Assembly: GCA_034189385.1 (NCBI GenBank)
Contig: JAXHVD010000003.1
Coordinates: 1 to 64,000, forward strand
DNA: 64,000 nucleotides
Reading direction: 5' to 3'
DNA from: Thermodesulfobacteriota bacterium
Lineage (GTDB): Bacteria > Desulfobacterota > Desulfobacteria > Desulfobacterales > C00003060
Part shown: positions 28,080 to 50,795 of the stretch, piece by piece
Layout of the letters: the number at the start of each line of letters is the position of its first letter
Numbering within the stretch: position 1 is the stretch's first letter
Translations under genes and position numbers: made by a program
Notes under the pieces: model-generated
What the model saw: the letters and a program-made list of their open reading frames with translations, nothing else
What the model was told of the DNA's origin: nothing
Databases searched by the model: none

Positions 28080-28865
28080 TCATGCTCCAGAAGGAAATAG
28101 ACTAGCATGGAGCCTTTTTTGATACCCTTCACGCAGGGTATCGATGATCTTGGGGGTCCCATAAGTTACATCGCCAACGGCAGTCACCGGCAGTATTTCG
28201 ATGACTGAATTGGTGACGAAGGCACCATCAAATTGATTCAACGCTTCCGGTGTGACCGTAGATTCGGTCACTACGATACCTATGGAGCGGGCAACCTCGA
28301 GGATCTGCTTGCGTGTCACACCTGGCAGCAGTCCTGCGTCTGTGGGCGGTGTGACCATTTTGTCGTTGTTTAAGAAGAAGACATTGGTGATGCTTCCCTC
28401 GGTAATAGCCCCACGTTCATTAATAAACAGGGCATCAAAGAAGCCCCCCTTTCTGGCCCAAGTGAGAACGTATATATTTTCAAGGTATGAGGTCGTCTTG
28501 AATCGAAGAAGGGGTGACTGTGAAAACCTCTGGAAGGGAGCAAAACCCAATCTTACCCCTTGCCCCTGCTCGATACGGACTTTCTTTAGGGGTTCCCAGG
28601 CGGTATGATAGGAGGTCTCCTCGGCGCCATGATCGCCGTGGGAGATCAGGTTGAGCCGCAACCGGGTCTCTGAGTCTTGAGGGATCTTCTTCAGGGCCTG
28701 GGTTAGAGCCTCCAGGGCCTTTTGCCTGGAGAAGGGAAAGGAAAAGAAACGGCACCCCTCTGCCATGCGATCCAAATGATCTTCTACAAAGGCCAGCCTT
28801 CCGCCTTGATAGACCCGGAAGGTTTCAAAAAGGCCCTCACCAAATAAAAGCGTACGGTTCTTCAT
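28080..28865 (-). CDS. pabC: Aminotransferase class IV / 4-amino-4-deoxychorismate lyase
   Basis: GEGLFETFR, HLDRM, FKTTSY (PLP lysine), TEGSITNVF, LLPGVTR; abuts pabB. Confidence 0.85.
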   Translation of the reverse strand: MKNRTLLFGEGLFETFRVYQGGRLAFVEDHLDRMAEGCRFFSFPFSRQKALEALTQALKKIPQDSETRLRLNLISHGDHGAEETSYHTAWEPLKKVRIEQGQGVRLGFAPFQRFSQSPLLRFKTTSYLENIYVLTWARKGGFFDALFINERGAITEGSITNVFFLNNDKMVTPPTDAGLLPGVTRKQILEVARSIGIVVTESTVTPEALNQFDGAFVTNSVIEILPVTAVGDVTYGTPKIIDTLREGYQKRLHASLFPSGA

Positions 28866-30122
28866 CTACTGCGCAATCCCCAAAGCCATCATGGAGGCCT
28901 TTGCCTTGATGATACTTTCCTCATATTCGAGCTCAGGATCTGAGTCAGCCACAATGCCGCCGCCCACCCCAAGGACGCCCTCTCCCTGCCAGAGTTCAAG
29001 GGTTCGAATGGCAACGTTTAGTACCATCTTGTCCTGAAAAAAATAGCCCATGGCCCCACAGTAGACCCCCCGTTCGTGGGGCTCCAATTCGTAGATAATC
29101 TCCATGGCCCTCTTCTTGGGAGCCCCAGTGATGGAACCAGGCGGAAAGGTGGCACCGATGATGTCAGAGATGGAGGTGTCACTCCTCGTCACTCCCCTCA
29201 CGTATGACACCATTTGATAGACCGTGTCGTACGCCTCTACCACATAGGGCCTGGGCACCGCAATGGAACGGTACAGGCAAAACCGTCCCAAGTCATTTCT
29301 CATAAGGTCAACAATCATCGTGTTCTCCGCCCTATCCTTTCCGCTCTCTTGTAGTTCTTTTCTAAGCCCCCTGTCAATGCTCGCCTCTGGGGACCTTTTT
29401 CTTGTTCCTTTCATGGGCTTGCTCAAGATCCTGTTGTTCCTCAATCGCAGGAAGAGTTCCGGACTCCCGGAAATAACCAGGCCGTCTCCCAAATTCACAA
29501 ATGCTGCATAGGAAACCGGCTGAATCTCTTTGAGGCGCAAATAGATATCAAAAGGGTCTGCCGGACAGGTGAAGTAGGCCCTCTGAGTATAGTTGATCTG
29601 ATAGACATCTCCAGCCCTGATATAGTCAAGGACACGACGGACGTTTTCGAGATAAGTCACCTTGCTCTGATTAAAGCCTGTGATTCTGCCGGCTGGGGAC
29701 TCTCTCCTCTTGAGCAGAGACAGTGGGGGGGAAAGGGGGGAGCCATTGTGCCAACAGTGCCAGGTCTTCTGGATATGGTCAAATACGAGAAATCGACGAT
29801 AGGCCGCCAGGTAGATGTGGGGATTTGGCGTGTCCTTGGTCCCTGGCAAGGGGAGATTCTCAATCCACTGGCAGGCCTCGTAGCCAATGTAACCGGCCAC
29901 AAAGTAATGTGGTGTCATGGAGGAAAGGAAGGAAAACAACTCAGCCCTGCTAAGCCCGGTGATATCTCCCTTGAAAACCTTCTCCGGCTCCCAGGCCACA
30001 AAGGAATGCCGGTTTGCAAAGGAAGGCTTCTGGGTTTCCAAAAAGATGGCGCCAGGCTCATGACGGACGGCTCTGAAGACCTGGCATGGGTGAGCCTCTA
30101 TATTAAGGCCCGTCTTGTTCAT
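28866..30122 (-). CDS. pabB: Aminodeoxychorismate synthase component I
   Basis: GDVYQIN, SPELF, KPMKGTR (PabB-type lysine), AENTMIVDLMRNDLGR, FPPGSITGAPK. Confidence 0.92.
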   Translation of the reverse strand: MNKTGLNIEAHPCQVFRAVRHEPGAIFLETQKPSFANRHSFVAWEPEKVFKGDITGLSRAELFSFLSSMTPHYFVAGYIGYEACQWIENLPLPGTKDTPNPHIYLAAYRRFLVFDHIQKTWHCWHNGSPLSPPLSLLKRRESPAGRITGFNQSKVTYLENVRRVLDYIRAGDVYQINYTQRAYFTCPADPFDIYLRLKEIQPVSYAAFVNLGDGLVISGSPELFLRLRNNRILSKPMKGTRKRSPEASIDRGLRKELQESGKDRAENTMIVDLMRNDLGRFCLYRSIAVPRPYVVEAYDTVYQMVSYVRGVTRSDTSISDIIGATFPPGSITGAPKKRAMEIIYELEPHERGVYCGAMGYFFQDKMVLNVAIRTLELWQGEGVLGVGGGIVADSDPELEYEESIIKAKASMMALGIAQ

Positions 30123-30137
30123 GAGGAGACACAGGGG

Positions 30138-32951
30138 TTATGTCGCTTTCGTATTCTTGCCAGTCCCCCATCCCAAATAGTGCATACCAAAATCGATCTC
30201 ACGTTCCACCTTGACCGCGCAAACCTTAAACTCCGGTATCTTTGCCACAGGGTCCAAAGCGTCGTGGGTCAATAAATTGGTCCTGGTTTCAGAATAGTGG
30301 AAGGTCATTGAAACAACACCGGGCGGCGTCGTCTTTGTAATTTTTGCCTTAGCCCGAACAGACCCCCGTTTAGAAGTTACCTTGACGGCGTCTCCATCTT
30401 CTATCTCCAGGGGGGCCGCATCAACAGGGTTGATCTCCACCCGCTCTTCGCCGCGCAGCACGTTCATTCCCGCTACCTTACGTGACAGCGTGCTGTGGAA
30501 ATGGAAGAAACTGCGTCTGGTAGTTAAGACAAAGGGGTACTCATGGCTCGTCACCTCGCCAGGAGGGGTATAGGCAACGGGACTAAACTTTGCACGACCT
30601 GAGGGTGTGGAAAATTTTTCGGCATACAAATACGGTGTGCCTGGGTGATTTTTGTTCGGACAGGGCCACTGGAGTCCGACCCCCTTAATCCGCTCGTAAG
30701 TAATGCCACCGTATTGCGGGGTCACGTCACGGATCTCTTCCATGATCTCTTCCGAGTTCTTAAAATCAAACCCCTGGGCTCCCGTGTTTTTTGCAATATC
30801 GCAGATGATCTCCCAGTCGGCACGACTGTTGCCCACTGGATCTATGGCTTTGCGGACGCGTTGAACGCGCCGCTCTGTGTTTGTAAAAGTGCCGTCCTTT
30901 TCGGCAAAACTCACTGCAGGAAAGACCACGTCTGCGAGTTGTGCCGTCTCTGTTAGAAAAAGATCCTGCACCACGAGCAGCTCCAGTCGGGGAATGGCCT
31001 CCTCAACAGCACTTGTGTTAGCTTCTGTCATGACGGGATTCTCCCCCATGATGTAGAGGGCCTTGACTTTGCCTGCATGGACGGCCTCAAAGAGCTCCGT
31101 CAGAGCTAGCCCTGGTAGTGGACTGAGCTGGCAGCCCCAGGCCTTTTCAAATCTCTCACGAACGGTGACATCTCCCACATGCTGATAACCCGGAAACACA
31201 TTGGGAAGGGCCCCCATGTCGCAGGCCCCTTGCACATTGTTCTGGCCCCTGAGGGGATTAACGCCTGAAGACGGTTTGCCAATATTGCCCGTAAGAAGTG
31301 CCAGATTAGCCACTGCCTTCACATTGTCTGTCCCATGGGAGTGTTGAGTAATCCCCATAGCATATAGTATGGTTGCCGGTGATGTAGAAGCATAGGAGAT
31401 GGCAGCATCAACTATTTTGTTGGCAGGAACGCCGGTGATTTGCTCTGCTGTGGCAAGATCAGATTCCATGACTGCGGCCTCAAAAGCTTCAAAGTCCTCA
31501 CACCGTTCTTTGATAAAGGCCCTGTCCAGCAGTTTCTCTTTGACAATAACCTGCGCCATAGCGTTGAGCAGGGCCACATCCGTTCCCGGCTGATGTCTTA
31601 TCCAGATGTGGGCCATACGACGCATCACAGTTCTTCGAGGGTCGGCCACAATAAGCGTTGCGCCCCCTTTCACTGCCCGGCTAATCTTTCTTCCAATAAT
31701 AGGATGGGCGGCCGTTGTGTTGCTCCCTATGATAAAGATACAACCAGCTGCTCCTATTTCGGATATGGCGTTTGTCATGGCGCCGCTACCTAGGGTGGCA
31801 GCCAGACCGGCCACCGTCGGGGAGTGTCAAAGGCGAGCGCAGTGGTCTACGTTATTCGTCTTCATGACCGACCTGACAAACTTCTGGAAGACATAGTTTT
31901 CTTCATTCGTACACTTAGCAGAAGAGAGGGCAGCAAACTGGTCCCCTTTGTAATGAACCAAGGTACTGGCCACGTACTTGATCGCCTGCTCCCAAGTGAC
32001 CTCAACAAACTCGCCTTTCTCCTTTACCAAGGGCCTCGTCACAGGGCCTGCCCCCACTTCTACATGGGCACCCTTCACTGTTATTCCAAGGGGATCATAG
32101 GTGCGGACGAAAGGAGAGGTGAGCCGATCTGGGCTATGAACGAATTGATAGCCAAAGCGCCCCCTAACACAAAGCTCTCCTTGATTCACAGGGTTACTAT
32201 AATCGCCTCTGGCTTTCACCACAGTGTTGCCACGGACGCCCAGATAAAGCCCGCAGCCGACACCGCAGTAAGGACAGATGGTTTTCACCTCCCGACTGGG
32301 ATACTGGATATTCTTGGGGATTAGAGCCCCTACTGGACAGCGCTCTACGCATTCCCCACAAGAAACACACACCGATTCTCGAAACGGTTTGTCGCCAAAG
32401 GTGGCGACCTTCAGGTCGTAGCCGCGATAGGCCATGTCAATGGCATCAACGCCGACGATTTCCCGGCACGTTCGGATGCATATGCCACAATGGATACACT
32501 TGTTTGCATTAAAATCAAAAAACGGATTGCTGGTATCAACAGGAAGCTCCTTGGCTACTCTCTTCAACCGGTTGAGCCGCCTCTCGTCGTAGCCGATGCG
32601 GTTCACAAGAGCCTGCAAACGGCAAGTACCGCTCTTTGGACAAAGCAGGCAGTTGAAATCATGGTCACTCAAGATGAGTTCAAGGGTCACACGGCGAACC
32701 CTTTCGATCTCCTCATCGTCTGTGATGACCACCATGCCCTCTTCAACGGGTGTGCGGCAGGCAGGATGGAGTTTTTTCTTCTTCTCAATCTTTACCAGGC
32801 ATATACGGCAAACCCCCTCAGAGGTGAGCCCAGGACAATAACACAAGGTAGGGATAAAAATCCCAGCACTTCGGGCCGCCTCCAGGATGGTCATCTCCCT
32901 TCTGGCCTTTAAGTGAATCCCGTCTATTTTCAGATTGACCTCGCCGCTCAT
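30138..32951 (-). CDS. fdhA: Selenocysteine-containing formate dehydrogenase alpha subunit (937 aa; joins track ORFs 31827-32951 and 30138-31814)
   Basis: In-frame TGA at 31827-31829 in DHCARL-U-HSPTVAGL; N-terminal [2Fe-2S], His-ligated and 2x[4Fe-4S] motifs, CPYCGVGC, LRGQNNVQGACDMG, C-terminal molybdopterin-binding domain. Confidence 0.96.
31797..31815 (-). promoter_or_regulatory. Bacterial SECIS element of fdhA
   Basis: GGUGGCC-GGUCU-GGCUGCC hairpin begins 11 nt after the UGA, resembling the E. coli fdhF SECIS (GGUCU loop). Confidence 0.85.
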
Positions 32952-33055: not shown

Positions 33056-34960
33056 TCACATGGTCAGGCCCGAGATACATTCCACAGCGTTAAACTTTGT
33101 GGGACAGGCCTCCATGCATGAGCCACACTTGATGCACTTGCTCTGATCGATCTCATGAACCTGCCTTTTCCCGCCTATAATGGCGTCAACGGGACAGGCC
33201 TTCAGGCAGAGCATACATGCCTTACACCGATATTCTTTTATACGGTAAGAGATCAGAGACCTGCACACAAGGGCCCGGCACCGTTTGTCACGGATGTGCT
33301 CTTCATACTCGTCTCGGAAGTACCGAATGGTGGAGATGACAGGATTCGGCACCGTTTGTCCCAGACCACATATAGACCCAGCCTTCACAGCCTCGGCCAA
33401 TTCTAAAAGGACAGCAATGTCATCGGGCCGGCCCTCTCCTCTCGTGATATCCCTGAGAAGTTGAAACATCTGTCTGGTGCCGAGCTTGCATAAGGTGCAC
33501 TGGCCACAGGACTCGTTTTGGGCAAAATCGAGAAAATAGCGGGCCATGTTCACCATGCAGGTGCGCTCATCCATGACCAGCATGCCGCCCGAACCCATGA
33601 TGGAGCCCACTTCGGCCAATGACTCATAGTCCACGGGAAGATCCAGAAGGCTTTCAGGGATGCAACCTCCAGAAGGCCCACCAGTTTGGACAGCCTTGAA
33701 TTGTCTGTCTCCCCTAATGCCTCCGCCGATGTCGAAGATAATTTCCCTGAGGGTCGTCCCCATGGGCACCTCAACAAGGCCCGTATTCTTCACATTTCCA
33801 GACAGGGCAAATACTTTGGTCCCCTTGCTCTTCTCCGTGCCCATACTGGCAAACCAGTCCGCTCCCTTAGAGACAATGGCCGGGACGCAGGCAAAGGTCT
33901 CCACGTTATTCAAAACGGTGGGCATGCCCCATAGCCCCACTATGCTGGTGTTGGGTCGAGGCAGTGGCTTTGGAAACCCGCGTTTTCCCTCTATTGACAT
34001 CACCAGGGCAGTGGATTCCCCGCATACAAAAGCCCCTGCACCCTTAACGATCTCAATCTCAAACCCAAAACTGCTTCCCATGATCTGGGGACCCAGGAGT
34101 CCCAGGTCTGTAGCCTGAGCAATGGCCGTCGTCAGATGCCGCACAGCAAGAGGATACTCTGAGCGCACATAGATGATCCCTTTGTGGGCGCCCACGGCGT
34201 ACCCGGCAATGATCATCCCTTCCAGCACACTGTGGGGGTCGCCCTCCATGACGCTACGGTCCATGAAGGCGCCGGGGTCCCCTTCGTCACCATTGCAGAT
34301 GATATACTTTTCCTCACCCGGTGCATTTCGAGACGACTCCCACTTGCGCCCTGTGGGGAAACCTGCGCCGCCCCTTCCGCGAAGGCCGGAGTCCTTCACG
34401 CAGGCAATCACTTCGTCCGGTTGCCACCTAGCCAGGACCATGCCGGCAGCCCCGTAGCCACCTATTCTGATGTAGTCCCCAATGTCATTGGGGTCTATCA
34501 CACCGCAATTTCTCAGCACCACCTTGATTTGCTTCTGGTAAAAAGGAATTTCGTCTATGTGGCGGTGCTTCTGGCCTGTCTGGGGGTCTTCATATAGCAG
34601 CCTTTCAACACATCGCTTCTTAATGAGCGTTTCTTCCACGATCTCGGGCACATCGTCTGGTGTCACACTGTGATAGAATATGTTTTGGGGTCGTACGGTA
34701 ACAATGGGCCCTTTCTCACAAAGCCCCTGGCACCCTGTTCTTTTTACAATGATGTTCTCTTCGTTTTCCTGGGTCTTGATTTCTCTGAGGAAGGCTTCGT
34801 GGATCTGCTGGCCGCCCGATACACCACAGCCCGGCACGCCGCAAATAGTCACATAAACAGGGTCCAGCCCTTCGCTGGTGATGAGAGATTCCCTGAGGCT
34901 GTCCAAGTCATCAAGACTTGTTATGGGGGGCAAGGTGTGTTGTCTATCGGGAGTTGTCAT
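33056..34960 (-). CDS. NuoF/HydB-like FMN/NAD(P)H-binding subunit of the formate dehydrogenase complex
   Basis: Thioredoxin-like [2Fe-2S] N-terminus, SGLRGRGGAGFPTG, NGDEGDPGAFMDR, GGPSGG, ESCGQCTLC, C-terminal 2x[4Fe-4S]. Confidence 0.95.
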   Translation of the reverse strand: MTTPDRQHTLPPITSLDDLDSLRESLITSEGLDPVYVTICGVPGCGVSGGQQIHEAFLREIKTQENEENIIVKRTGCQGLCEKGPIVTVRPQNIFYHSVTPDDVPEIVEETLIKKRCVERLLYEDPQTGQKHRHIDEIPFYQKQIKVVLRNCGVIDPNDIGDYIRIGGYGAAGMVLARWQPDEVIACVKDSGLRGRGGAGFPTGRKWESSRNAPGEEKYIICNGDEGDPGAFMDRSVMEGDPHSVLEGMIIAGYAVGAHKGIIYVRSEYPLAVRHLTTAIAQATDLGLLGPQIMGSSFGFEIEIVKGAGAFVCGESTALVMSIEGKRGFPKPLPRPNTSIVGLWGMPTVLNNVETFACVPAIVSKGADWFASMGTEKSKGTKVFALSGNVKNTGLVEVPMGTTLREIIFDIGGGIRGDRQFKAVQTGGPSGGCIPESLLDLPVDYESLAEVGSIMGSGGMLVMDERTCMVNMARYFLDFAQNESCGQCTLCKLGTRQMFQLLRDITRGEGRPDDIAVLLELAEAVKAGSICGLGQTVPNPVISTIRYFRDEYEEHIRDKRCRALVCRSLISYRIKEYRCKACMLCLKACPVDAIIGGKRQVHEIDQSKCIKCGSCMEACPTKFNAVECISGLTM

Positions 34961-35469
34961 TTCTGCCCTTTTCCCCGCTCTGGCCTGGAGGTTCTTTGCC
35001 CAGCTTTGTCGCTATCTTCCTTGTCTCGGCTCAGGAGTTCATTCATCTTAAAAGCCGTCATCTTAGGATATACTTCATCATCTATCATAACCACAGGCGC
35101 CATGGCACAAGAGCCGACACAAGCAACGCGCTCAAGGCTATATTCATAGTCTCTTGTAGTCTGCCCCGTCTTTATGCCCAATCGATACTGGGCTGTTTCC
35201 AAGATGTCACTGGCACCGCGGACATGGCAGGCGGATCCTTGGCAAACTTTTACAAGGTGATCACCTCGCCGCGTGAGATAAAAGTGCGCGTAGAAAGTAG
35301 CCACACTGAAAACCTGGCTTCTGGGTAGCCTCAGGAAGGTGGCGATTTCCTTTAGCGTCTCTTCGGGCAAATAGCCGAATTCCTCTTGCACCCTTTGCAG
35401 TATGGGAACCAATGCCCCCCTTTTCCCTTCAAAGACCGCCAAAATTTTCCGCAACCGTGCCTCGATCAT
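34957..35469 (-). CDS. NuoE/HydC-like [2Fe-2S] subunit
   Basis: VATFYAHF, VCQGSACHVRG, ACVGSCAMAP. Confidence 0.95.
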   Translation of the reverse strand: MIEARLRKILAVFEGKRGALVPILQRVQEEFGYLPEETLKEIATFLRLPRSQVFSVATFYAHFYLTRRGDHLVKVCQGSACHVRGASDILETAQYRLGIKTGQTTRDYEYSLERVACVGSCAMAPVVMIDDEVYPKMTAFKMNELLSRDKEDSDKAGQRTSRPERGKGQK

Positions 35470-35477
35470 GAAATACC

Positions 35478-36488
35478 CTACCGCTTTCCCTGGACAAATT
35501 GCTCGGCCAGCTCCACATCAGCAGCACTGCCAATGAAGACCGGCACCCGCTGGTGGAGATGCTCAGGTTCTATATCCAATATCCGTTCCCGCCCCGTACT
35601 GGCAGCACCCCCAGCTTGCTCCGCCACAAAGGCAAGGGGGTTGGCCTCGCACATCAGCATCAGTTTGCCGTGCGGTTTCTTGGAATCTCTGCAATCGGCA
35701 GGATACATGTGTATCCCCCCTTTGAGGAGATTACGATGGAAATCTGCCACAAGAGAGCCAGAGTAACGTTGCACATAGGGCCGATCAGTCTTGATATCAG
35801 GGGTCTTGAAGTACTCCACCACATTCTGGACGTTCTCATCCCAGAAGTAGTAATTGCCTTCATTCACGCTGTAAACCCTTCCCTTTTCCGGTATCACGAT
35901 GTTCTCGTGTGAGAGAAAAAACTCGCCTATCCTCGGCTCTAGAGTAAAGCCGTAGACGCCATTGCCGGCCGTGTAGACCATCATCGTGCTTGAGCCGTAA
36001 ATGAAATAGCCCGCAGCCACCTGTCTATGGCCAGGCTGGAGGACATCTGCCGTGAGGCCCATTTCCCCTGCGCTCTCTTTTCTGAGAATGGAGAAAACAG
36101 TGCCTGCCGCCGTATTGACATCAATGTCTGTAATGCCCCCAAGGGGTTCGAAGACCAGGATGTACGGCCCTCTTGAATACTTGGCTGCAATGGGCAGGAC
36201 GTCCGTCTCCCTTTTGGAAGCCATGCAATACAAATGGCCTGTATGACGAACGCGGTTGATGATGGCAGCATGGGCAAACTGCACCAATCTCTGGAAATGC
36301 TCTTCGTCCCCACTGTCCGTGTCAACAAAGCCGAGATCCTCTGTAAGGTTTGCCTTGTTGACCTTCTGGTCAATGATCTTGGCTGCCACCGTCAGCTCCG
36401 CTAGCAAAGCTGTAAAGGCGCCGACAGCCTCTGGGCTCTCCCTTTGCTTGACCAAGAGATGTTCTGTCACAGTAATCCCTTTGGGCAT
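35478..36488 (-). CDS. Class 1 fructose-1,6-bisphosphatase homolog, probably catalytically inactive
   Basis: FBPase I fold motifs QVAAGYFIYGSST, YSVNEGN, RYSGSLVADFHRNLLKGGI, EANP are present, but DPLDGSSN reads EPLGGITD, ASEE reads ASKR and GKLR reads GKLM. SD GAGGAG. Confidence 0.88.
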   Translation of the reverse strand: MPKGITVTEHLLVKQRESPEAVGAFTALLAELTVAAKIIDQKVNKANLTEDLGFVDTDSGDEEHFQRLVQFAHAAIINRVRHTGHLYCMASKRETDVLPIAAKYSRGPYILVFEPLGGITDIDVNTAAGTVFSILRKESAGEMGLTADVLQPGHRQVAAGYFIYGSSTMMVYTAGNGVYGFTLEPRIGEFFLSHENIVIPEKGRVYSVNEGNYYFWDENVQNVVEYFKTPDIKTDRPYVQRYSGSLVADFHRNLLKGGIHMYPADCRDSKKPHGKLMLMCEANPLAFVAEQAGGAASTGRERILDIEPEHLHQRVPVFIGSAADVELAEQFVQGKR

Positions 36489-36549
36489 TTTCTGCTCCTC
36501 TTTTGTCTGGTTATCTTTCAGGACTGGGGCGAATACACAAAATCTGTGC

Positions 36550-37458
36550 TCAGGCACCAGGATACTGAACCGACTGCAAATGGGGCTCCGCTGCCAGAAA
36601 ATCCTGCACCCCCGAAATATCTATCTCATTATTGCCAAGGCCCAGGATCTCTTCGTCTAAGCCCATACTCAGTCCCAGGAGTTGAGGGTAGAGGATGGAT
36701 GGCACGTGGTGGTTTGTGCCCCCATTTGTTACCATCTCCTTCTGGATGGTCTCAAACTGCAACTGGCAAAACACGCACCCCGTTGTCAGATAGTGGGCAC
36801 CTGCACTTTTGGCATCTGTCAGTTTCTTTTCGGTAAAATCCAAAGAAAGGGCGTCGTTGGTCCCCAACAATGGGGCGCCACAGCACTCCAGCTTGGTGGA
36901 CCAGTCCACGCTCTCTGCCCCCGTCAGTTCCACCAGTTGATCAAACAAGGAGGGGGCCACGGGGTCGTCAAATTGAACGATCGGACTGGGCCGCAAGGCG
37001 TGACAGCCGTAATGGGTGGCAATCTTCAGGTCCTCGTAAGGCCTTAAGACTTTCTCCTTGATGGCATCAGTGCCCACATCGTGAAAAAGAACGCTGAGAA
37101 GATGCCTTACCTGAACCTTCGCCTCATATTTCAGACCTTCTTTGGCAAGGATTCTATTGACCTCCTCTCGCAACTGCCGGTCTTCTTTCATGAGATACTC
37201 GGCCATGCGGAATGTGCCGTAGCCGCACTTGCACAAAACGACCAGGTTTAGGTTCTCCCTTTCAGACAGGGCCAAATTCCTGGCCGAGGAGAGCACAAAG
37301 GCCTTTAGGTCGATGTTTCTCAATGGATACCCGCAACAGTTAAACTCTGCGATGTCCACCAGCGTCACACCAAGTTTTTCAAGCACCGCCCTTGAGGCTG
37401 TTTCATATTGCCTGAGTCGGATGGGAATGTTGCATCCAAGGAATATGGCAAGCTTCAT
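36550..37458 (-). CDS. hdrB: Heterodisulfide reductase subunit B-like protein (two CCG domains)
   Basis: FLGC, NCCG, HYGCH, ECCG, GCVFC. Confidence 0.9.
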   Translation of the reverse strand: MKLAIFLGCNIPIRLRQYETASRAVLEKLGVTLVDIAEFNCCGYPLRNIDLKAFVLSSARNLALSERENLNLVVLCKCGYGTFRMAEYLMKEDRQLREEVNRILAKEGLKYEAKVQVRHLLSVLFHDVGTDAIKEKVLRPYEDLKIATHYGCHALRPSPIVQFDDPVAPSLFDQLVELTGAESVDWSTKLECCGAPLLGTNDALSLDFTEKKLTDAKSAGAHYLTTGCVFCQLQFETIQKEMVTNGGTNHHVPSILYPQLLGLSMGLDEEILGLGNNEIDISGVQDFLAAEPHLQSVQYPGA

Positions 37459-37477
37459 GGGCTTCTCCCCTTATCTC

Positions 37478-39163
37478 CTATGCAGCCTTACTTTTGATCT
37501 GTTTCAAGGCCAGGTTCTTGAGTTCATAGAGCACGTCCGTAACGCGCACGCCCTGTGGGCAGTGTTCCTGACACATGTAACATGTCACACAGTCCCAAAG
37601 CATGTTGGAGCCAATAGCCAGATCCTTTTGTTTCAAAGCAAGGCAGTGCATAATCTCGTGAGGAAGGAGTCCCAGCACAGCCTTTGGATCTTCATAGTTT
37701 CCAACAACAGGACAAACGTTTGTACAGGTCTGACAGCCGAAGCAATAGGAAAAGGTACTTGCTTGACCAGAAATCTCAAGGGCACTGGCAAAGGCCTTGT
37801 CCACAGGGGTCAGGGAGATTGGTTTCTCCTTGAGATGCGCCAAATCGAATTGAGCCCCCATCGTCTCTCTGGCCCAGGCCTCGGGTTTGGGATAGCCTCT
37901 TTGAGCTAACCGCTCATTTAGTTCTGACCAGGCCTTTTCCAGGTTGATGCCTATGGGACAGACATCGGTACAGCGATGGCAATCGGTGCAGATATGGCTT
38001 CCTTCCTGAATCCTGGTAAGCCTTTTCTTGCTTAGCCAATTTCCCGCAAGAAGGGCCCTCAACGCGGCCAGTTTTTCAGAGGGCAGGATGTTGGGATTGG
38101 GAATCTCGTCAAAGGCCACTGCCACAGAACAGCGTAGGGTACAATCCCCACAGTGCGTGCAAGCATCGATCTGCAGGGCCTGTCTGGTTGCCATATTCGC
38201 AGGATCGGATTTCGCCTCATCCATGACACTATCTGCCAGAAAGTACACAGGGGTTGAGAAAATGTGGAAAAACTTGCTAAAGGGAAGGTAGGCCAAACCG
38301 ATGAAGCAAGCCAGAAAATGAAGATACCATAGCCCTGTGTAAACCTTTGCCCGGTCCGTCAACAGGGCCACGGGCTTCAGTGCCCTCGAGGCGGAATAGC
38401 TCATAAATGCCCATTGGGGCCTGGAATGGCAGCTTGCACAGCTCATTTCATGCAGTTCTTGGCCTTGGTCCAGTGTTTCTTTGTCAAAGGGCCCTTTCAC
38501 ATTAGGAGACACCACACCGAAGCTTTGCACCCAGTAAGCTTCAAGGGCCTTGCTTTCTTCCGCCTCTTCTTCTCCAAGGCCAGCATACTCATCCACCATC
38601 TCTTTATATATTGAATGAGATAGGATCTTTGTCGCTTCTAAGAAAAAACCGGATATCATGATGACGCCCAACACGGCGATGGCATAGACATCCATAGACG
38701 CATTTTTCGGTCGAGGCTTTTTCAAAAAGAACCTACGATAAACGGCCATCCCGAGCCCCACAAGCACGACCAGACCAAAAAAGTCTCGCAAAAACATGAA
38801 AGGATTGAGTGTAGAGTAATATTCATCAAAGACAACAGCAGTGACCACTTTGTCGAGTCCATGCATCAGTAAAAGAAACATGAAACCGCCATATATACAT
38901 ATATGGGCAAGCCAGCGGATGAAGTCCTTCTTCAACAACCAGACCTGAAAGAGCACATCCCAAAAAAGGACCTTCACCACTGTGCCAATCCTGGGACTGC
39001 ATAGGCTTGAGAGGATACCCCTAGCTGCTGCCCACACCCTGGCCAAGCTGGAAATCTCCGAAGCCTCAGGGCCGACTTTCCATCTAAACCAGTTTGATAC
39101 CCTGTAGACCAAGCCGACTGCGAAAACAGCCAAAGAGGTGTATAGGGCAACGTCATAAAACAT
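37478..39163 (-). CDS. Membrane NarI/HdrE-like cytochrome b fused to a CxxCH loop and duplicated HdrC-like domains (four [4Fe-4S] motifs)
   Basis: TM helices with His pairs RWLAH..LMH and YLH..KFFH; CASCH; CTHCGDCTLRC, CTDCHRCTDVCP, CFGCQTCTNVCP, CVTCYMCQEHCP. Confidence 0.88.
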   Translation of the reverse strand: MFYDVALYTSLAVFAVGLVYRVSNWFRWKVGPEASEISSLARVWAAARGILSSLCSPRIGTVVKVLFWDVLFQVWLLKKDFIRWLAHICIYGGFMFLLLMHGLDKVVTAVVFDEYYSTLNPFMFLRDFFGLVVLVGLGMAVYRRFFLKKPRPKNASMDVYAIAVLGVIMISGFFLEATKILSHSIYKEMVDEYAGLGEEEAEESKALEAYWVQSFGVVSPNVKGPFDKETLDQGQELHEMSCASCHSRPQWAFMSYSASRALKPVALLTDRAKVYTGLWYLHFLACFIGLAYLPFSKFFHIFSTPVYFLADSVMDEAKSDPANMATRQALQIDACTHCGDCTLRCSVAVAFDEIPNPNILPSEKLAALRALLAGNWLSKKRLTRIQEGSHICTDCHRCTDVCPIGINLEKAWSELNERLAQRGYPKPEAWARETMGAQFDLAHLKEKPISLTPVDKAFASALEISGQASTFSYCFGCQTCTNVCPVVGNYEDPKAVLGLLPHEIMHCLALKQKDLAIGSNMLWDCVTCYMCQEHCPQGVRVTDVLYELKNLALKQIKSKAA

Positions 39164-45173: not shown

Positions 45174-46049
45174 CTACATACCTAATTCATCCAAGATGGA
45201 AGGAATCTTGTTCTCCCATCCCAAGGCCATGATGTGCACGCCGTCGCAAAGATCCTTCATCCCCTTGATCAGGCGAACAGCAATGTCCATACTGGCTTGC
45301 GCCTTATCCTCCGATGCCTTCATCTCGTCAATCAGGGGCTCTGGAACAAAGACCCCTGCCACGTTCTTGTTCATGTAGCGGGCCATACCCACCGATTTGA
45401 GCAAGATGACGCCACCTAACACCTTGGCACCAAAACCCTCCACACGCTTCATGAATTTCTCAAAGATATCCAAGTCATAGACGGCCTGGGTCTGAAAAAA
45501 CTTGGCGCCCGCCTCGATCTTCTTCTCCATCTTTATGATCTGCAGCTCCAGGGCAGCTTCATTATCTGCCCCGGGGTTTACAACGGCCCCGCACAAGAAG
45601 TGGGGCGCTCCCTTGAGTTCCTTTCCAGCCATGTCAACACCGGAATGCAGCTTCCTCGCAGCTTCCAGGAGTGTCACAGAGTCCAAATCGAAAACCGGTT
45701 TGGCCTTGGGATGATCCCCCAGCGTGGGATGGTCACCAGTGAGGGCAAGCATATTCCTGATCCCAAGAACCCAGCCGCTTAAGAGATCTGCCTGCAAGGC
45801 GAGCCTGTTGCGATCCCTGCACGTGACCTGATAGATGGGGTCGATTCCCCTGTCCTTTAGCAGATGACAGACCGCCATGGAGCCCAGGCGCATGACCGAG
45901 CTCTGTAGGTCTGTCACGTTCACAGCATCTACTCGATCTTTAATGATATCAGCATCTTTTAGCAAATGCTCTACATCCGTTCCCTTGCCAGGTCCGACCT
46001 CGGCAGTCACCAAGAACTTCCCTGATTCTAAGGCTTCTCTAAAGCTCAT
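45174..46049 (-). CDS. metF: Methylenetetrahydrofolate reductase (copy 2)
   Basis: TAEVGPGKG, CRDRNRLALQ, LTGDHP, FQTQ, GVHIMA. Confidence 0.95.
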   Translation of the reverse strand: MSFREALESGKFLVTAEVGPGKGTDVEHLLKDADIIKDRVDAVNVTDLQSSVMRLGSMAVCHLLKDRGIDPIYQVTCRDRNRLALQADLLSGWVLGIRNMLALTGDHPTLGDHPKAKPVFDLDSVTLLEAARKLHSGVDMAGKELKGAPHFLCGAVVNPGADNEAALELQIIKMEKKIEAGAKFFQTQAVYDLDIFEKFMKRVEGFGAKVLGGVILLKSVGMARYMNKNVAGVFVPEPLIDEMKASEDKAQASMDIAVRLIKGMKDLCDGVHIMALGWENKIPSILDELGM

Positions 46050-46153
46050 GGCTCACCCCTTTACATGGACCATCTTCCATGGAAAATTAACGATTACAAG
46101 GCTCAAAAAAGAAAGCATCTCTTGGGGGGTTCAAAATACTTCGTCATCAATCG

Positions 46154-46819
46154 TCAATCCGCTTGCGTCTTTTCCACCTGCCGCAGATCCTCCCTGACTA
46201 CCCTTCCTGGGTGCACAGGCCAGTCTTTCACCTGGGGCCTTTCCTTGAGATAATGCAGCATGTCTAACCGCTTGAGGGCATAGTATATCTCCTGCCAGGC
46301 ACAGGGACGGTCCCTGGAGACCTCGCATTTCCCTCCTGATGCCCCTCCACATGCGCCATTGAGAAGGCCCTTGGCACATCGGGTCACGGGACACACACCA
46401 CCCGTCCTCCACAGGATACAGTCGCCACAGGCCTGGCAGTTCTCTGTCCAGACGCCTGTCTCCTTTTCCACCCCGATGAACTGGGTATTCAGGGCCGGCA
46501 AGACCGGTTTGTCAGGAAAACGACTGGCAACGGCTTGAACGCCATTGCCACAGGCCATGGAGAGGATAGCTTCATGGTTACCTATCTTCTCTTCCAGCCG
46601 ATCGATAAATCTATCGGCGCATTGTCTTGGGATGGTCGTCTTCTCGACAAAGATCTCCTTGTTTTCAGAAACAAGGGCCTCTGCGAGATTGTCTACCTGC
46701 TCTGCCCCACCGGCAGAGCAGAAGGTCACGCAGGCACCGCAACCTACCAAGAGGATCCTATGGTACGGAGCAACCATGTGCCGTATCTCTTCCATTTGCT
46801 TCTGTTCTGCAATGATCAT
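46154..46819 (-). CDS. metV: Methylene-THF reductase Zn/Fe-S partner subunit (copy 2)
   Basis: GCGAC, RQC, MACGNGVQ, CQACGDC, CPVTRCAKGLLNGACGG. Confidence 0.93.
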   Translation of the reverse strand: MIIAEQKQMEEIRHMVAPYHRILLVGCGACVTFCSAGGAEQVDNLAEALVSENKEIFVEKTTIPRQCADRFIDRLEEKIGNHEAILSMACGNGVQAVASRFPDKPVLPALNTQFIGVEKETGVWTENCQACGDCILWRTGGVCPVTRCAKGLLNGACGGASGGKCEVSRDRPCAWQEIYYALKRLDMLHYLKERPQVKDWPVHPGRVVREDLRQVEKTQAD

Positions 46820-46836
46820 TCTATACCTCCAAGACG

Positions 46837-48324
46837 CTATGCTTCCGAGGGCAGCGACACGACAAAAGTCGTTCCTTTACCCACCTCGCTCTCCAAGTGG
46901 ACAAAACCATTATGGGCCTCCACGATCCCCTTTACGATGGATAGCCCTAGGCCCGAGCCTGATATGCTCTTAGTTTCCTCAGTCTTGATGCGATAGAATT
47001 TCTCAAAGACCCTGTTCAAGTCCTGCGGTGGAATCCCAATACCAGTATCAACGACTTTAAACCGAATGTCTTTGCCCTTTTTACGAAGGCTCACCTCTAC
47101 CCTGCCCCCTTTCGAGGTATACTTAATAGCATTGCTGATCAAATTGACAAAGATGGCCTGCACGCCCCCCCTGTCTCCGTTAAAGGCTGGGATATCGTCT
47201 GCGACATCGAACGTGATCTCCACACCCTTTTCTTCTGCAGACAGGCGCATCAGGTCCGCTGTCCGCTCCAACTCATCAGCCATATCCAGGTTCTCAATCT
47301 TCTGAATGGATTTGCCTTCTTGAAGGCGACGATAATCCAAGATGTCGTTCACGAGGGTAATCATACCTTTGGTCTTTTCCTTGGCCTTGCTGAGCAAATC
47401 GTCCTGTTTGGGAGTCAAATCTCCGGCCAACCCGTCTAAGACAACAGAAATCTGCATCAACAGAGAACTCAAGGGGGCCTTGAGTTCGTGAGAGACCATG
47501 GAAAGAAAATCGTCCCTCAGTTTATCCATGGCACTCACGCCTGTGACGTCGTGAAACAGACTCATTGCTCCGATAACGGTTCCTGCTGCATTTTTCACAG
47601 GGTCCACGTGAACGCGAAGGGTCTTGTCTCCCACCTTCACCACCGGCTCCTCGCCGGCCATAAGCGTGATAAGGGAAGTGTCCGACTTGATGGCCCGCAC
47701 AAACAGGGACAGCAGTTCGTCTGATGCCAAACAGACAGAAACAGGGCTCCCTATGGCCTTTTCCTCGGTCAACCCAAAAAGACGAGCGGCTTCGTCATTG
47801 AACAGGACGACGTTCGTCTGCCAATCGGTGACGACAAGGCCATCGCTGAAGCTGTGGAGAATGGCCAGGAGGTTTTCGTCATAGCTCACCTTGGTCAGAG
47901 CAGCCTGCCTTTGCCGGGTCAATATCCCCAGTTGGCGTCTCAGCCGAAAGGCCTCAATGGCACGGTTTATCTTTATTTCAAAATGCTCGGGAGTGAAGGT
48001 TTTCCGAAGGCAGTCGTAGGCCCCGGCGTGCATAGCCTCTAGGGCCTCCTCCCCACAGTCTTCGGACATGGCCATAATCAGGAGTTCGGGTCGAGCCCTT
48101 TGGAGCGTCTCAATGAGCGTTATGCCTCCCTCCTTTGGAAGGTCAAGGGAAAGGAGCATAATGTCTACCTCTGCCGGATGCCTCTGAATGATGCCCAGAG
48201 CCTCTTCCACAGATTCAGCCGTCCGAACCCTATGGCCCTCGTTTAAAAGGAGCTCCCGGCATTTCTGCATCATGGCGATATCGTTTTCCGCCACCAATAC
48301 GTTTATGCTTGGCTTGATTAACAT
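46837..48324 (-). CDS. Cytoplasmic histidine kinase: pseudo-receiver, PAS, HisKA, HATPase
   Basis: H-box VSHELKAPL, NLISNAIKY, DTGIGI, GSGLGL; PAS DGLVVTD..FNDEAARLFG; no TM segment. Confidence 0.95.
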   Translation of the reverse strand: MLIKPSINVLVAENDIAMMQKCRELLLNEGHRVRTAESVEEALGIIQRHPAEVDIMLLSLDLPKEGGITLIETLQRARPELLIMAMSEDCGEEALEAMHAGAYDCLRKTFTPEHFEIKINRAIEAFRLRRQLGILTRQRQAALTKVSYDENLLAILHSFSDGLVVTDWQTNVVLFNDEAARLFGLTEEKAIGSPVSVCLASDELLSLFVRAIKSDTSLITLMAGEEPVVKVGDKTLRVHVDPVKNAAGTVIGAMSLFHDVTGVSAMDKLRDDFLSMVSHELKAPLSSLLMQISVVLDGLAGDLTPKQDDLLSKAKEKTKGMITLVNDILDYRRLQEGKSIQKIENLDMADELERTADLMRLSAEEKGVEITFDVADDIPAFNGDRGGVQAIFVNLISNAIKYTSKGGRVEVSLRKKGKDIRFKVVDTGIGIPPQDLNRVFEKFYRIKTEETKSISGSGLGLSIVKGIVEAHNGFVHLESEVGKGTTFVVSLPSEA

Positions 48325-48337
48325 AGACTCACAAATC

Positions 48338-48715
48338 CTAGCTTAAGAGGGCCTCCACGCGTTTCACCAGCTCTTCAGATTCAACTGGCTTGGCAATATA
48401 GTCCTCAGCCTCCGTCATGAGACCCATATGCTGTGTATAGGCTGTTCTAAAGATGGCCTGGTCCACGGCAGTGAGAAGAACCACGGGGATCTCTTTAAGT
48501 TCCGGATCTGCTTTTAGGACGACACACACATCGTATCCGTTCATCTCAGGCATCATGACGTCCAGGATGACTAGGTCAGGTTTTTCCGCCCGCACTTTCT
48601 CTAGCCCCTCCTTTCCATCATGAGCCAGAATAACCTCGTAGGACTTGCTTTCCAAAAGGAGCGCTGTGGCCTCACAAAAATCCATGTCATCGTCTACTAA
48701 CAAGACCTTCTTCAT
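48338..48715 (-). CDS. Single-domain response regulator
   Basis: LLVDDD, VILDVMMP, LLTA, YIAKP. Confidence 0.95.
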   Translation of the reverse strand: MKKVLLVDDDMDFCEATALLLESKSYEVILAHDGKEGLEKVRAEKPDLVILDVMMPEMNGYDVCVVLKADPELKEIPVVLLTAVDQAIFRTAYTQHMGLMTEAEDYIAKPVESEELVKRVEALLS

Positions 48716-48735
48716 GGCTACCTCTGTGTTTTGTC

Positions 48736-49143
48736 TTACTCTTTTGAAATTCTTTGAATGATTTTTCCGACCCTGTCGAGTAACACGCTGCTTTCCACGG
48801 GTTTTTCCACATAATCGTCAATGTCCAGGCGCACTCCAGTCTCCAATTCGTAGCGGCGCTGGCTGACCCCTTCTTGTACTGAGCTGAGGATGATGATCGG
48901 CATGGAGGCATACTTTGCATACCTGGGGTCCTTTAAGGCCTTGCAGACCTCGAAACCATCCATGTTGGGCATCAAGAGATCCAGAAGGAGCAAATCAAAG
49001 GGCTCCTCTTTCAGCTTTGACAGACATTGCTCCCCGTCTTCGGCCAGGACCACAGCGTATCCTGCAGACTCCAATATCATCTGCAAAGTCTCCCGCATGT
49101 CAGGGTCATCGTCCACAACCAAAATCTTAGTACTTGTTCCCAT
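48736..49143 (-). CDS. Single-domain response regulator
   Basis: LVVDDD, LLLDLLMP, ILSS, YVEKP. Confidence 0.95.
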   Translation of the reverse strand: MGTSTKILVVDDDPDMRETLQMILESAGYAVVLAEDGEQCLSKLKEEPFDLLLLDLLMPNMDGFEVCKALKDPRYAKYASMPIIILSSVQEGVSQRRYELETGVRLDIDDYVEKPVESSVLLDRVGKIIQRISKE

Positions 49144-49212
49144 GTCATCCCCCCCTAGTTGCCTGGCCATGGGTCATCTGTTATCCCTTCTGAGCAACCC
49201 CAAAGTGAGACT

Positions 49213-50130
49213 CTAGACGATCGGCCTGGGCATCAAGCCGGCTTCCTCCACAATTCGCGGTACAATGTCTTCCCAGGCTACGGCCATGATGTGCACACCG
49301 TGGATCCCGTCAACCTCCTTGAGCTGCTCAATGGTCTCAAGGCAGATCCGCACCCCTTCTTCCTTGGGATCCTTGGCATCGCCCATCCGATCAACGATCG
49401 CCTTTGGCACGCTAAGGCCAGACACGTTGTTTCGCATGTAGCGCGCCATGCCAACGGACTTAATCGGTATGAGCCCGGCAAGTATGTGGGTTTTTTCATC
49501 CAGGCCCCTGTCTTTAACCATCGTCATCCACTCAACGAATTTGGCCATGTCAAATATGCCCTGGGTTTGGATGAAGTCTGCGCCGGCCTTCACCTTTTTG
49601 GCCAAACGGGTGACGCGAAATACAAAGGGATCGGCAAAAGGATTGGCTGCTGCACCAATAAAGAAGGGGGTGTCTCCTGAAAATTCTTCACCGTTGATGA
49701 ATTGGTGTTCATCCCGCATGTTTTTGACCATCTGAAGGAACTGTATGGAATCGATGTCATATACCCCCTTGGCCGTGGGGTGATTGCCGAAACGCTGATG
49801 ATCGCCGGAAAGGCAAAGGACATTTCGAATACCCAGGGCCGCCGCCCCTATGAGATCACCCTGCAGGGCGAGACGATTCCGGTCTCTGACAACCATCTGC
49901 AGGACCGGCTCCACGCCCACTTCTTTTAACAGCACACAGCCGCTCATGCTGGACATGCGCACAATCGCGGTCTGGTTGTCTGTCACATTCAAGGCGTCAC
50001 AGCAAAACTTGAGAAGGTCGCCCTTTCTCCTAATGACGGTGGGGGCCGGTCCCTTTGGAGGCCCACACTCGGCCGTGACAGCGAATTGCCCGCTTTCCAA
50101 TATCCTTTCCAGATTGCTTCCTGCCTTCAT
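49213..50130 (-). CDS. metF: Methylenetetrahydrofolate reductase (copy 1)
   Basis: TAECGPPKG, VRDRNRLALQ, LSGDH, IQTQ, GVHIMA. Confidence 0.95.
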   Translation of the reverse strand: MKAGSNLERILESGQFAVTAECGPPKGPAPTVIRRKGDLLKFCCDALNVTDNQTAIVRMSSMSGCVLLKEVGVEPVLQMVVRDRNRLALQGDLIGAAALGIRNVLCLSGDHQRFGNHPTAKGVYDIDSIQFLQMVKNMRDEHQFINGEEFSGDTPFFIGAAANPFADPFVFRVTRLAKKVKAGADFIQTQGIFDMAKFVEWMTMVKDRGLDEKTHILAGLIPIKSVGMARYMRNNVSGLSVPKAIVDRMGDAKDPKEEGVRICLETIEQLKEVDGIHGVHIMAVAWEDIVPRIVEEAGLMPRPIV

Positions 50131-50795
50131 GACTCAAGATCCTCCCTGACCATCTTTCTGGGGCCGCCGTGTCCGGCCGGTGACCAGTCCTTGACGGGAA
50201 AGATCTCCTCTAGCATCTCCAGCCGATTCAGCTTGGTGAGGCGGTCTATGATGAGTTGCCATACACAATCTACCTCTTTGCTGATTTCACATTTTCCATC
50301 CACCGAACCGCCGCAGGGGCCATTTAAGAGTTGCTTGGAGCACCTGGCAATGGGACAAAGCCCGGCCGTCTTGTCCAGGATGCAGTTTCCGCAGCCAGCG
50401 CAGCGCTCTGACCAGACCCCCAGTCTTTCAGTCACCCCCAAAAAGGTCGTGTTGCAGCCAGGCAGGATGACCTTGTCTGGAAATCGCTCAGCCAAAAGTT
50501 GAACCCCTGCTCCGCAGGCCAAAGAGAGAACGGCATCGCATTGGGCCACCTCTTTTTCGGTCATATCAATGAATTCAGGCTCGCACTGCCTGGCAACAGC
50601 GTCATATAAGACCTCACTCTTGTCGCCCGACATCTTCCTGGCCACACGAATGGCAGCAGCCAGGACTTCGGCCTCTTTCTTGCCACCTGCCAACGACATG
50701 GCGGCACAGGTCTCACATCCCAGCACCAGCAGGCGTCCGCACCCCTTGGTCATCTTTTCAATCTCTTCAAATGGCTTCTGCTCTAAAGTAATCAC
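50127..50795 (-). CDS. metV: Methylene-THF reductase Zn/Fe-S partner subunit (copy 1)
   Basis: GCETC, RQC, LACGAGVQ, CAGCGNC, CPIARCSKQLLNGPCGG; GTG start. Confidence 0.93.
   Translation of the reverse strand: MITLEQKPFEEIEKMTKGCGRLLVLGCETCAAMSLAGGKKEAEVLAAAIRVARKMSGDKSEVLYDAVARQCEPEFIDMTEKEVAQCDAVLSLACGAGVQLLAERFPDKVILPGCNTTFLGVTERLGVWSERCAGCGNCILDKTAGLCPIARCSKQLLNGPCGGSVDGKCEISKEVDCVWQLIIDRLTKLNRLEMLEEIFPVKDWSPAGHGGPRKMVREDLES

Follow-up and report, generated by a model that had tools for sequence, protein, structure and literature searches.

A conserved class 1 FBPase-fold pseudoenzyme apparently tied to a predicted electron-bifurcating formate dehydrogenase in uncultured Desulfobacterales

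The locus described here raises the question of what a full-length class 1 fructose-1,6-bisphosphatase (FBPase) without its catalytic residues may be doing directly ahead of the genes of a formate dehydrogenase (FDH). The window, i.e. the whole stretch of 64,000 nucleotides that was analysed (positions 1 to 64,000 of contig JAXHVD010000003.1, assigned to a Thermodesulfobacteriota bacterium), carries this gene, here called fbp* (protein Fbp*), in a cluster of Wood-Ljungdahl genes. An earlier note, drawn up from the nucleotide letters, had described it as intact, apparently dead as an enzyme, and a candidate sensor of sugar phosphates. The gene and its surroundings comprise the following features:

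36550..39163, minus strand: hdrB-like and membrane hdrC-like genes (upstream context, outside the fixed module)
36495..36500, minus strand: Shine-Dalgarno-like GAGGAG, 6 nt 5' of the fbp* ATG
35478..36488, minus strand: fbp*, class 1 FBPase-fold pseudoenzyme of 336 aa (by domains, AlphaFold and Foldseek)
34957..35469, minus strand: nuoE/BfuC-like gene, [2Fe-2S] subunit, 8 nt after the fbp* stop
33056..34960, minus strand: nuoF/BfuB-like gene, flavin subunit of 634 aa with A231/M233 and GGPSG (427-431)
30138..32951, minus strand: fdhA/BfuA-type formate dehydrogenase gene, with an in-frame TGA (31827-31829) presumably read as selenocysteine
32031..32111, minus strand: FdhA loop of about 27 residues with a conserved YD motif, typical of the fbp* module
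30141..30206, minus strand: FdhA C-terminal tail with a conserved WG motif

The fbp* frame is free of internal stops, and a plus-strand frame tried across it is broken. Its stop is separated by 8 nt from the nuoE ATG, and the hdrB-like gene, whose stop lies at 36550, leaves a gap of 61 nt; the open reading frame, ribosome-binding site and both spacings given in the earlier note thus all hold on the minus strand. A promoter scan gave no useful signal (4 sites versus 8.1 expected). Both Pfam domains of the family, PF00316 and PF18913, score above cut-off in Fbp*, NCBIfam model NF006778 is matched with 411 bits (cut-off 368), and the best PDB match is E. coli Fbp (E 1.5e-85). With a deep alignment AlphaFold yields a model of pLDDT 91, in which residues 53-59 are of low confidence; a model built on a narrow alignment (pLDDT 51) was set aside. 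Foldseek aligns the model to E. coli, human and pig FBPase with TM scores of 0.87-0.91, and matches in the ESM Atlas are to generic FBPase clusters only. In domains and fold Fbp* is therefore a class 1 FBPase, and databases label the proteins of its clade class 1 fructose-bisphosphatase. By this label, genomes of the lineage are credited with an enzyme that they may lack.

Among the matches listed, 120 proteins were compared, 117 without canonical motifs and 3 canonical; residue counts rest on 111 full-length Fbp* proteins, 6 shorter ones having been dropped. Positions are given in E. coli numbering, from alignment with an E. coli Fbp. Judged by their place in the motifs, we take the mammalian equivalents to be E97 (E89), E98 (E90), D118 (D110), D121 (D113), D74 (D66), R276 (R271) and E280 (E275). 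Single changes at these catalytic sites cut FBPase activity by orders of magnitude. D113 also contacts a sugar hydroxyl, a contact that is removed with its loss. In the window gene the relevant residues are:

36282..36284, minus strand: V69 in place of the catalytic-loop Asp D66 (non-Asp and variable in the clade)
36210..36215, minus strand: K92-R93 in place of the metal/base pair E89-E90 (K92 in 111/111)
36132..36149, minus strand: E114-P-L-G117-G-I119 in place of D110-P-L-D113-G-S115
35664..35864, minus strand: the kept 6-phosphate/sugar pocket (N209, R241, Y242, Y262, K275)
35658..35660, minus strand: M277 in place of the 1-phosphate contact R271 (M in 111/111)
35646..35648, minus strand: E281, the retained metal-site glutamate E275 (111/111)

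Alignment displays every replacement that had been reported from the letters (EPLGGITD, ASKR, the DSGDE..RLV loop and GKLM), along with the retained NEGN, RYSGS, YP and GK. The loop is indeed replaced, but in a register shifted by one residue, SGDEE being the counterpart of E. coli NVQGE. Likewise, RYSGS is correct for the window gene but not as a motif of the clade, where RYTGS is found in 98 of 111 proteins. EPLGG fails altogether as a motif of the homologs: D110 (D114) is kept in 110/111 Fbp* proteins and is E in the window gene only, a relative 95% identical to it carrying D. The change being private, the motif of the clade is DPLGG.

According to excerpts of structural work on the enzyme, D118, D121 and E280 bind metal 1, E97 and D118 metal 2, and E97 metal 3, while the leaving phosphate is contacted by R276 and the backbone of G122/S123 (PMC3785478); D74 and E98 form a water relay, and an Arg of the neighbouring subunit binds the 6-phosphate (PMC5639204). 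Of the four metal ligands E89, D110, D113 and E275, the window gene keeps E275 only, and D113 is lost in all 111 Fbp* proteins (G in 108, A in 3). Water-activating E90 and loop residue D66 are both absent (R93 and V69 in the window gene): E90 is lost across the clade at a position that has become variable, and the D66 position, D in 32/32 canonical proteins, is mostly V (48 of 111), T (22) or R (10). The 1-phosphate contacts S115 and R271 have given way to I119 and M277; the former position is I, V or L in 107/111, and together these changes leave the 1-phosphate side hydrophobic. N56 is also changed throughout the clade. The contacts to 6-phosphate and sugar, on the other hand, are kept (N206, R238 and Y239 in all 111, Y259 in 110, K269 in 108), and the cross-subunit Arg is invariant in the Fbp* alignment. 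All catalytic residues are kept in the canonical proteins compared (13, plus the 19 best phylum-level matches), so that the replacements cannot be attributed to chance.

Compared to class 1 FBPase (E. coli Fbp, 2gq1; PF00316 + PF18913; NF006778), the Fbp* clade is hence alike in fold, length and 6-phosphate/sugar pocket and shares E275 and, in the relatives only, D110; it differs at E89K, E90, D113G, S115, D66, N56 and R271M, and in the position of its gene ahead of nuoE-nuoF-fdhA. Judged from these residues, catalysis is lost, and Fbp* is very probably not an FBPase. A literature search found no paper on an R276M mutant.

A gene that has lost its catalytic residues may simply be decaying. dN/dS was estimated by NG86 from pairs with 0.05<dS<1.5, pairs that are not independent of each other; the median is 0.080 for Fbp* (431 of 820 pairs usable) and 0.056 for the canonical paralog (33 of 78). 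For the window gene itself, comparisons to relatives give saturated dS values (1.5-3) or none that can be computed. Across 23 loci the dN of fbp* is the lowest (0.10), with 0.12-0.18 for nuoE, nuoF and fdhA. Among 41 distinct coding sequences (the set left after a no-stop filter), Lys is encoded by either of its codons and Gly by any of four at the replaced sites, and the same replacements are fixed across Fbp* proteins 63-95% alike. The clade-wide losses are, we infer from these sequences, fixed replacements and not random decay. A fold with its catalytic residues lost and a gene kept by selection, the two marks of a pseudoenzyme, are both found in Fbp*, and the earlier proposal of a selectively maintained pseudoenzyme is borne out by dN/dS of about 0.08, fixed replacements and synonymous codon variation. 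The opposite picture, i.e. relatives with canonical motifs, dN/dS near 1 and no synteny, was looked for and is excluded.

That the window gene is a recently decaying pseudogene is thus barely credible. It does form the longest terminal branch of the Fbp* clade (0.19) and carries the private D to E change, but besides the low dN/dS and the identical replacements in divergent proteins, the stop count is "none" for every fbp* match in the genome searches (family and order samples). At the level of the clade, recent decay is excluded by residue conservation, dN/dS and codon variation.

In a quick tree of 52 proteins the 20 sampled Fbp* form one clade (SH-aLRT 100, stem 0.36), nested in a group (support 95) with the canonical enzymes of the genus, which suggests a duplication followed by fixation of a new residue set. 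Of 37 genomes of the window's family, 24 carry fbp*; a search of 401 genomes of the order, only 19 of which contain any class 1 match, added 2 genomes from a second family. In the samples searched the clade is therefore confined to one order and, within it, to two uncultured families; its proteins are labelled mostly Desulfobacterales, Deltaproteobacteria or Thermodesulfobacteriota. Among 400 genomes of the phylum no match outscored the canonical paralog of the window's genome (G000); the best 19 of the 150 matches were inspected, and all are canonical. The K/G/I signature occurs in only 2 of the 150 best cluster representatives, both fragments (P0150, P0208). This narrow range limits the significance of the finding.

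Does the lineage need Fbp* as an enzyme? A canonical fbp elsewhere in the genome, a point raised in the earlier note, does exist: G000 has an intact class 1 FBPase on contig C20 (39094-40083), 62% identical to Fbp*, and also a class V FBP aldolase/phosphatase; no GlpX was found in this genome. The class V enzyme lies about 1.4 kb from a GGDD-type phosphofructokinase (G000:C14:55960-59422), giving G000, with the C20 gene included, up to three routes between fructose 1,6-bisphosphate (FBP) and fructose 6-phosphate (F6P).

Five genomes (91-98% complete) have no class 1 match besides fbp*, and searches for class II, class III and full class V FBPases found nothing in them; each of the five encodes a PPi-type phosphofructokinase that scores above cut-off and carries the GGDD motif. 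In G011 and G051, neither fbp* nor an FBPase of class I, II or V was found. The idea that Fbp* is needed as sole gluconeogenic enzyme was rejected on both grounds. Still, Fbp* passes the NCBIfam equivalog cut-off and is the only recognisable FBPase of five near-complete genomes, the best point in favour of a still working, perhaps slow FBPase. Six catalytic positions changed together, two of them by fixed charge loss or reversal, argue against such an enzyme, as do G011 and G051 and the PPi-type phosphofructokinases, which are reversible, although their sole use for gluconeogenesis is unproven according to an excerpt of PMC12203962; we regard it as highly improbable. Hardly more probable is a mixed tetramer in which Fbp* would inhibit or regulate the canonical FBPase as one of its subunits. 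The 62% identity of Fbp* to the paralog and the co-occurrence of both genes in many family genomes would favour such an arrangement, but the canonical partner is missing from the class 1 matches of the same five genomes, and fbp* lies beside a canonical fbp in no locus seen.

The neighbourhood of the gene points elsewhere. Forty-four distinct loci were compared. Wherever the sequence extends 700 bp or more past fbp* (37 loci), nuoE is the next gene, and wherever it extends 4.2 kb or more (22 loci), fdhA is reached as well; synteny, which the earlier note had proposed to check, is thus conserved. The gap from the fbp* stop to the nuoE start is 8-9 nt in 33 of 43 cases, 17-213 nt in 5 and unscored in 5. 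Upstream, among 35 visible loci, the adjacent gene is hdrB in 19, acsE in 9, metF in 2 and a paralogous fdh in 1, and in 4 no acs, met, hdr or fdh gene of the window's set lies directly before fbp*. With the upstream gene variable and nuoE constant, rearrangements fall before fbp*; one between fbp* and nuoE was never seen in the loci examined. The fixed unit is fbp*-nuoE-nuoF-fdhA, not the Hdr or acs genes. Of the neighbourhood named in the earlier note, the nuoEF and fdh part stands and the hdrB part does not (19/35 loci), so that the proposed link to Hdr is not supported; nor, given the four loci just mentioned, is a fixed place in the Wood-Ljungdahl operon. A search for fusions gave 12 longer matches (41-56% identical), none with NuoE, NuoF or Fdh Pfam domains. 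In one locus (L031:1701-3655, G018) nuoF is matched in two pieces around residues 482-502, possibly by a frameshift or an assembly error.

Presence and absence follow the same unit. Of the 37 family genomes, 24 have fbp* together with the loop-type FdhA, 8 have neither and 5 have FdhA only; the latter are uninformative, all being cut upstream by a contig end or N gap. In the 401 genomes of the order, the 12 genomes with FdhA matches below 1e-70 are also the 12 that carry fbp*. Joint loss is visible on contiguous DNA in G004, G009, G011, G013 and G051. In G004 all that is left between acsE and pabB is a stub of 28 codons of the fdhA tail (L217:4479-4562), a trace of the deletion that removed the entire four-gene module; acsE is followed by a paralogous fdh in G009, G011 and G013 and by an unrelated gene in G051. 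G008 and G047 end at contig edges here. On an acsB tree of 26 genomes, parsimony requires 5 changes, at least 3 of them on well-supported branches. However, adjacent genes go together by block deletion, so that joint loss is not an independent proof. pabB- and pabC-like folate precursor genes follow fdhA in the window (28080-30122) and in many relatives, and stay where the module is deleted.

Taken together, a functional tie of Fbp* to the NuoE-NuoF-FdhA complex appears likely. An alternative without contact to the FDH would be a co-transcribed regulator of operon expression, acting via the nearby kinase and response regulators or at the RNA level. FBPase/IMPase-fold proteins are known to moonlight, fbp* is the first gene of the module in three loci (L042-L044), and the cluster holds a kinase and two receiver proteins. 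Pfam, on the other hand, finds no nucleic-acid-binding domain in Fbp*, and the kinase genes persist in the module-less G009, G011 and G051, making this alternative quite improbable. The region in question (window 45174-50795) contains two metF/metV pairs (41-48% alike in relatives) flanking a PAS histidine kinase and two stand-alone receivers, and this layout of the Wood-Ljungdahl cluster recurs in G011, G051 and G020.

The three downstream genes resemble Type 1 Fdh-Bfu, known e.g. from Carboxydothermus hydrogenoformans, in the Pfam layout described in the main text of PMC9304861: BfuC, BfuB with extra Fe-S domains and BfuA with a pterin domain are all found. Of three bifurcation criteria for the flavin subunit, taken from section 17 of PMC7311640 (A/E232 with M234, GGPSG, and a Phe at T. 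maritima position 367), the first two are seen in NuoF, where by motif position they correspond to A231 with M233 and to GGPSG (427-431). NuoE-NuoF-FdhA is accordingly predicted to be an electron-bifurcating formate dehydrogenase. It differs from the Type 1 Fdh-Bfu of that main text, in which the word "bisphosphatase" occurs 0 times, by the FBPase-fold gene leading the module as a fourth gene and by the extra loop and tail of FdhA. The WG tail is present in 22/22 module-type FdhA ends and 0/4 paralogs. The loop site apparently tolerates insertions, as unrelated ones of 14-17 residues occur there in other families. One genome (G200) has a second loop-type fdhA without a preceding nuoF (L218:3536-5197); it is preceded by a frame of 554 codons, which we presume to resemble FmdE-type proteins. 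The position of the in-frame TGA is Cys in the FdhA of L138, and the fdhA frame is open in L138:12473-15277 (Cys) and L130:3327-6125, with TGA in other relatives; these two are selenium-free versions for expression.

Residues lost, a strongly preserved gene and a fixed place before the FDH genes indicate that Fbp* is probably a partner rather than an enzyme. We hypothesize, tentatively but as quite possible, that it is a ligand-binding pseudoenzyme partner of NuoE-NuoF-FdhA and a regulator sensing sugar phosphate (F6P/FBP). Fbp* would have been born by duplication of the lineage's class 1 FBPase, would have lost the Mg-dependent phosphatase chemistry, and would have become a dedicated non-catalytic partner of the complex encoded directly 3' of it. 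Its pocket may still bind a hexose phosphate, the simplest candidate being the ancestral ligand, F6P or FBP. Invariant Lys92 could take the place of Mg2+ and Glu89 and pair with the retained D114/E281 or with the 1-phosphate, providing positive charge without water activation, such that a ligand would be held and not hydrolysed. The Fbp* oligomer might contact the FDH complex, possibly via the FdhA loop or tail of the module, and its occupancy might tune the interconversion of formate and CO2 with NADH and ferredoxin to the level of hexose phosphate. In a Wood-Ljungdahl cell of the sulfate-reducer type, gluconeogenesis needs NADH and reduced ferredoxin. Because the predicted FDH handles both, a hexose-phosphate signal would make sense. 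In its most specific form, with Fbp* as fourth, allosteric subunit of a bifurcating selenium FDH that holds FBP/F6P uncleaved by Lys-for-Mg2+ exchange, docks at the FdhA loop or tail and gates electrons between formate, NADH and ferredoxin by gluconeogenic status, this idea becomes rather less likely. If true, it would place a Bfu enzyme and the methyl branch of the Wood-Ljungdahl pathway under the direct control of a metabolite.

The sugar-hydroxyl contact lost with D113 speaks against a hexose-phosphate ligand, and the hydrophobic 1-phosphate side would suit a different phosphomonoester equally well. Fbp* may be a structural, assembly or cofactor-handling subunit of the FDH, with a pocket that is empty or takes up FMN, a nucleotide or the pterin cofactor by its guanine-nucleotide end; a phosphate would then sit in the kept site and a ring system against the hydrophobic face (G117, I119, F246, M277). 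Synteny and co-loss apply equally to such a subunit, the tight coupling of 8-9 nt suggests stoichiometric synthesis, and the hydrophobic changes are fixed beside a kept phosphate site. We nevertheless consider it unlikely: the Type 1 Fdh-Bfu of the main text of PMC9304861 has three subunits, a separate FdhD is present in 5/5 genomes tested, with or without the module, and the sugar contacts K269 and Y239 are kept. Improbable, too, is a new enzyme in which Lys92, D114 and E281 would form a one-metal or Schiff-base site on a sugar phosphate. These residues are kept in 111/111 (K92, E281) and 110/111 (D114) proteins, leaving two of three ligands of metal site 1 (site as in the excerpt of PMC3785478), but position 93 and the catalytic loop are variable, the loop is of low confidence in the model (residues 53-59), no such reaction suits an FDH operon, and no sugar genes were seen among the neighbours.

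In comparison to ligand-binding pseudoenzyme regulators such as those reviewed in PMC5106787 and PMC10211241, the regulator favoured here is alike as a dead duplicate with kept pocket under purifying selection. Our literature search, which covered listings and the openings of abstracts, brought up neither a pseudoenzyme of the class 1 FBPase type nor one that partners a formate dehydrogenase, and no published description of Fbp*; the supplementary operon table of PMC9304861 could bear on the matter. Fbp* is a real and conserved pseudoenzyme, apparently undescribed, whose gene is tied to those of a formate dehydrogenase predicted to bifurcate electrons. A conserved dead sugar-phosphatase on this operon is a concrete candidate for matching Bfu enzymes and the Wood-Ljungdahl branch to biosynthetic demand and, as one soluble 37-kDa protein with an active, 62%-identical paralog as control, it is cheap to test at first.

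Beyond this clade, E89 is replaced by S in six cluster representatives (P0164, P0162, P0196, P0226, P0245, P0284), and about 20 further ones display other catalytic-site changes, so that more degenerate lineages of class 1 FBPase may exist. One representative, P0141 (766 aa, with a transit-peptide-like start), contains two FBPase domains, of which the second keeps SEE and DGSSN and the first has several of its catalytic positions degenerate.
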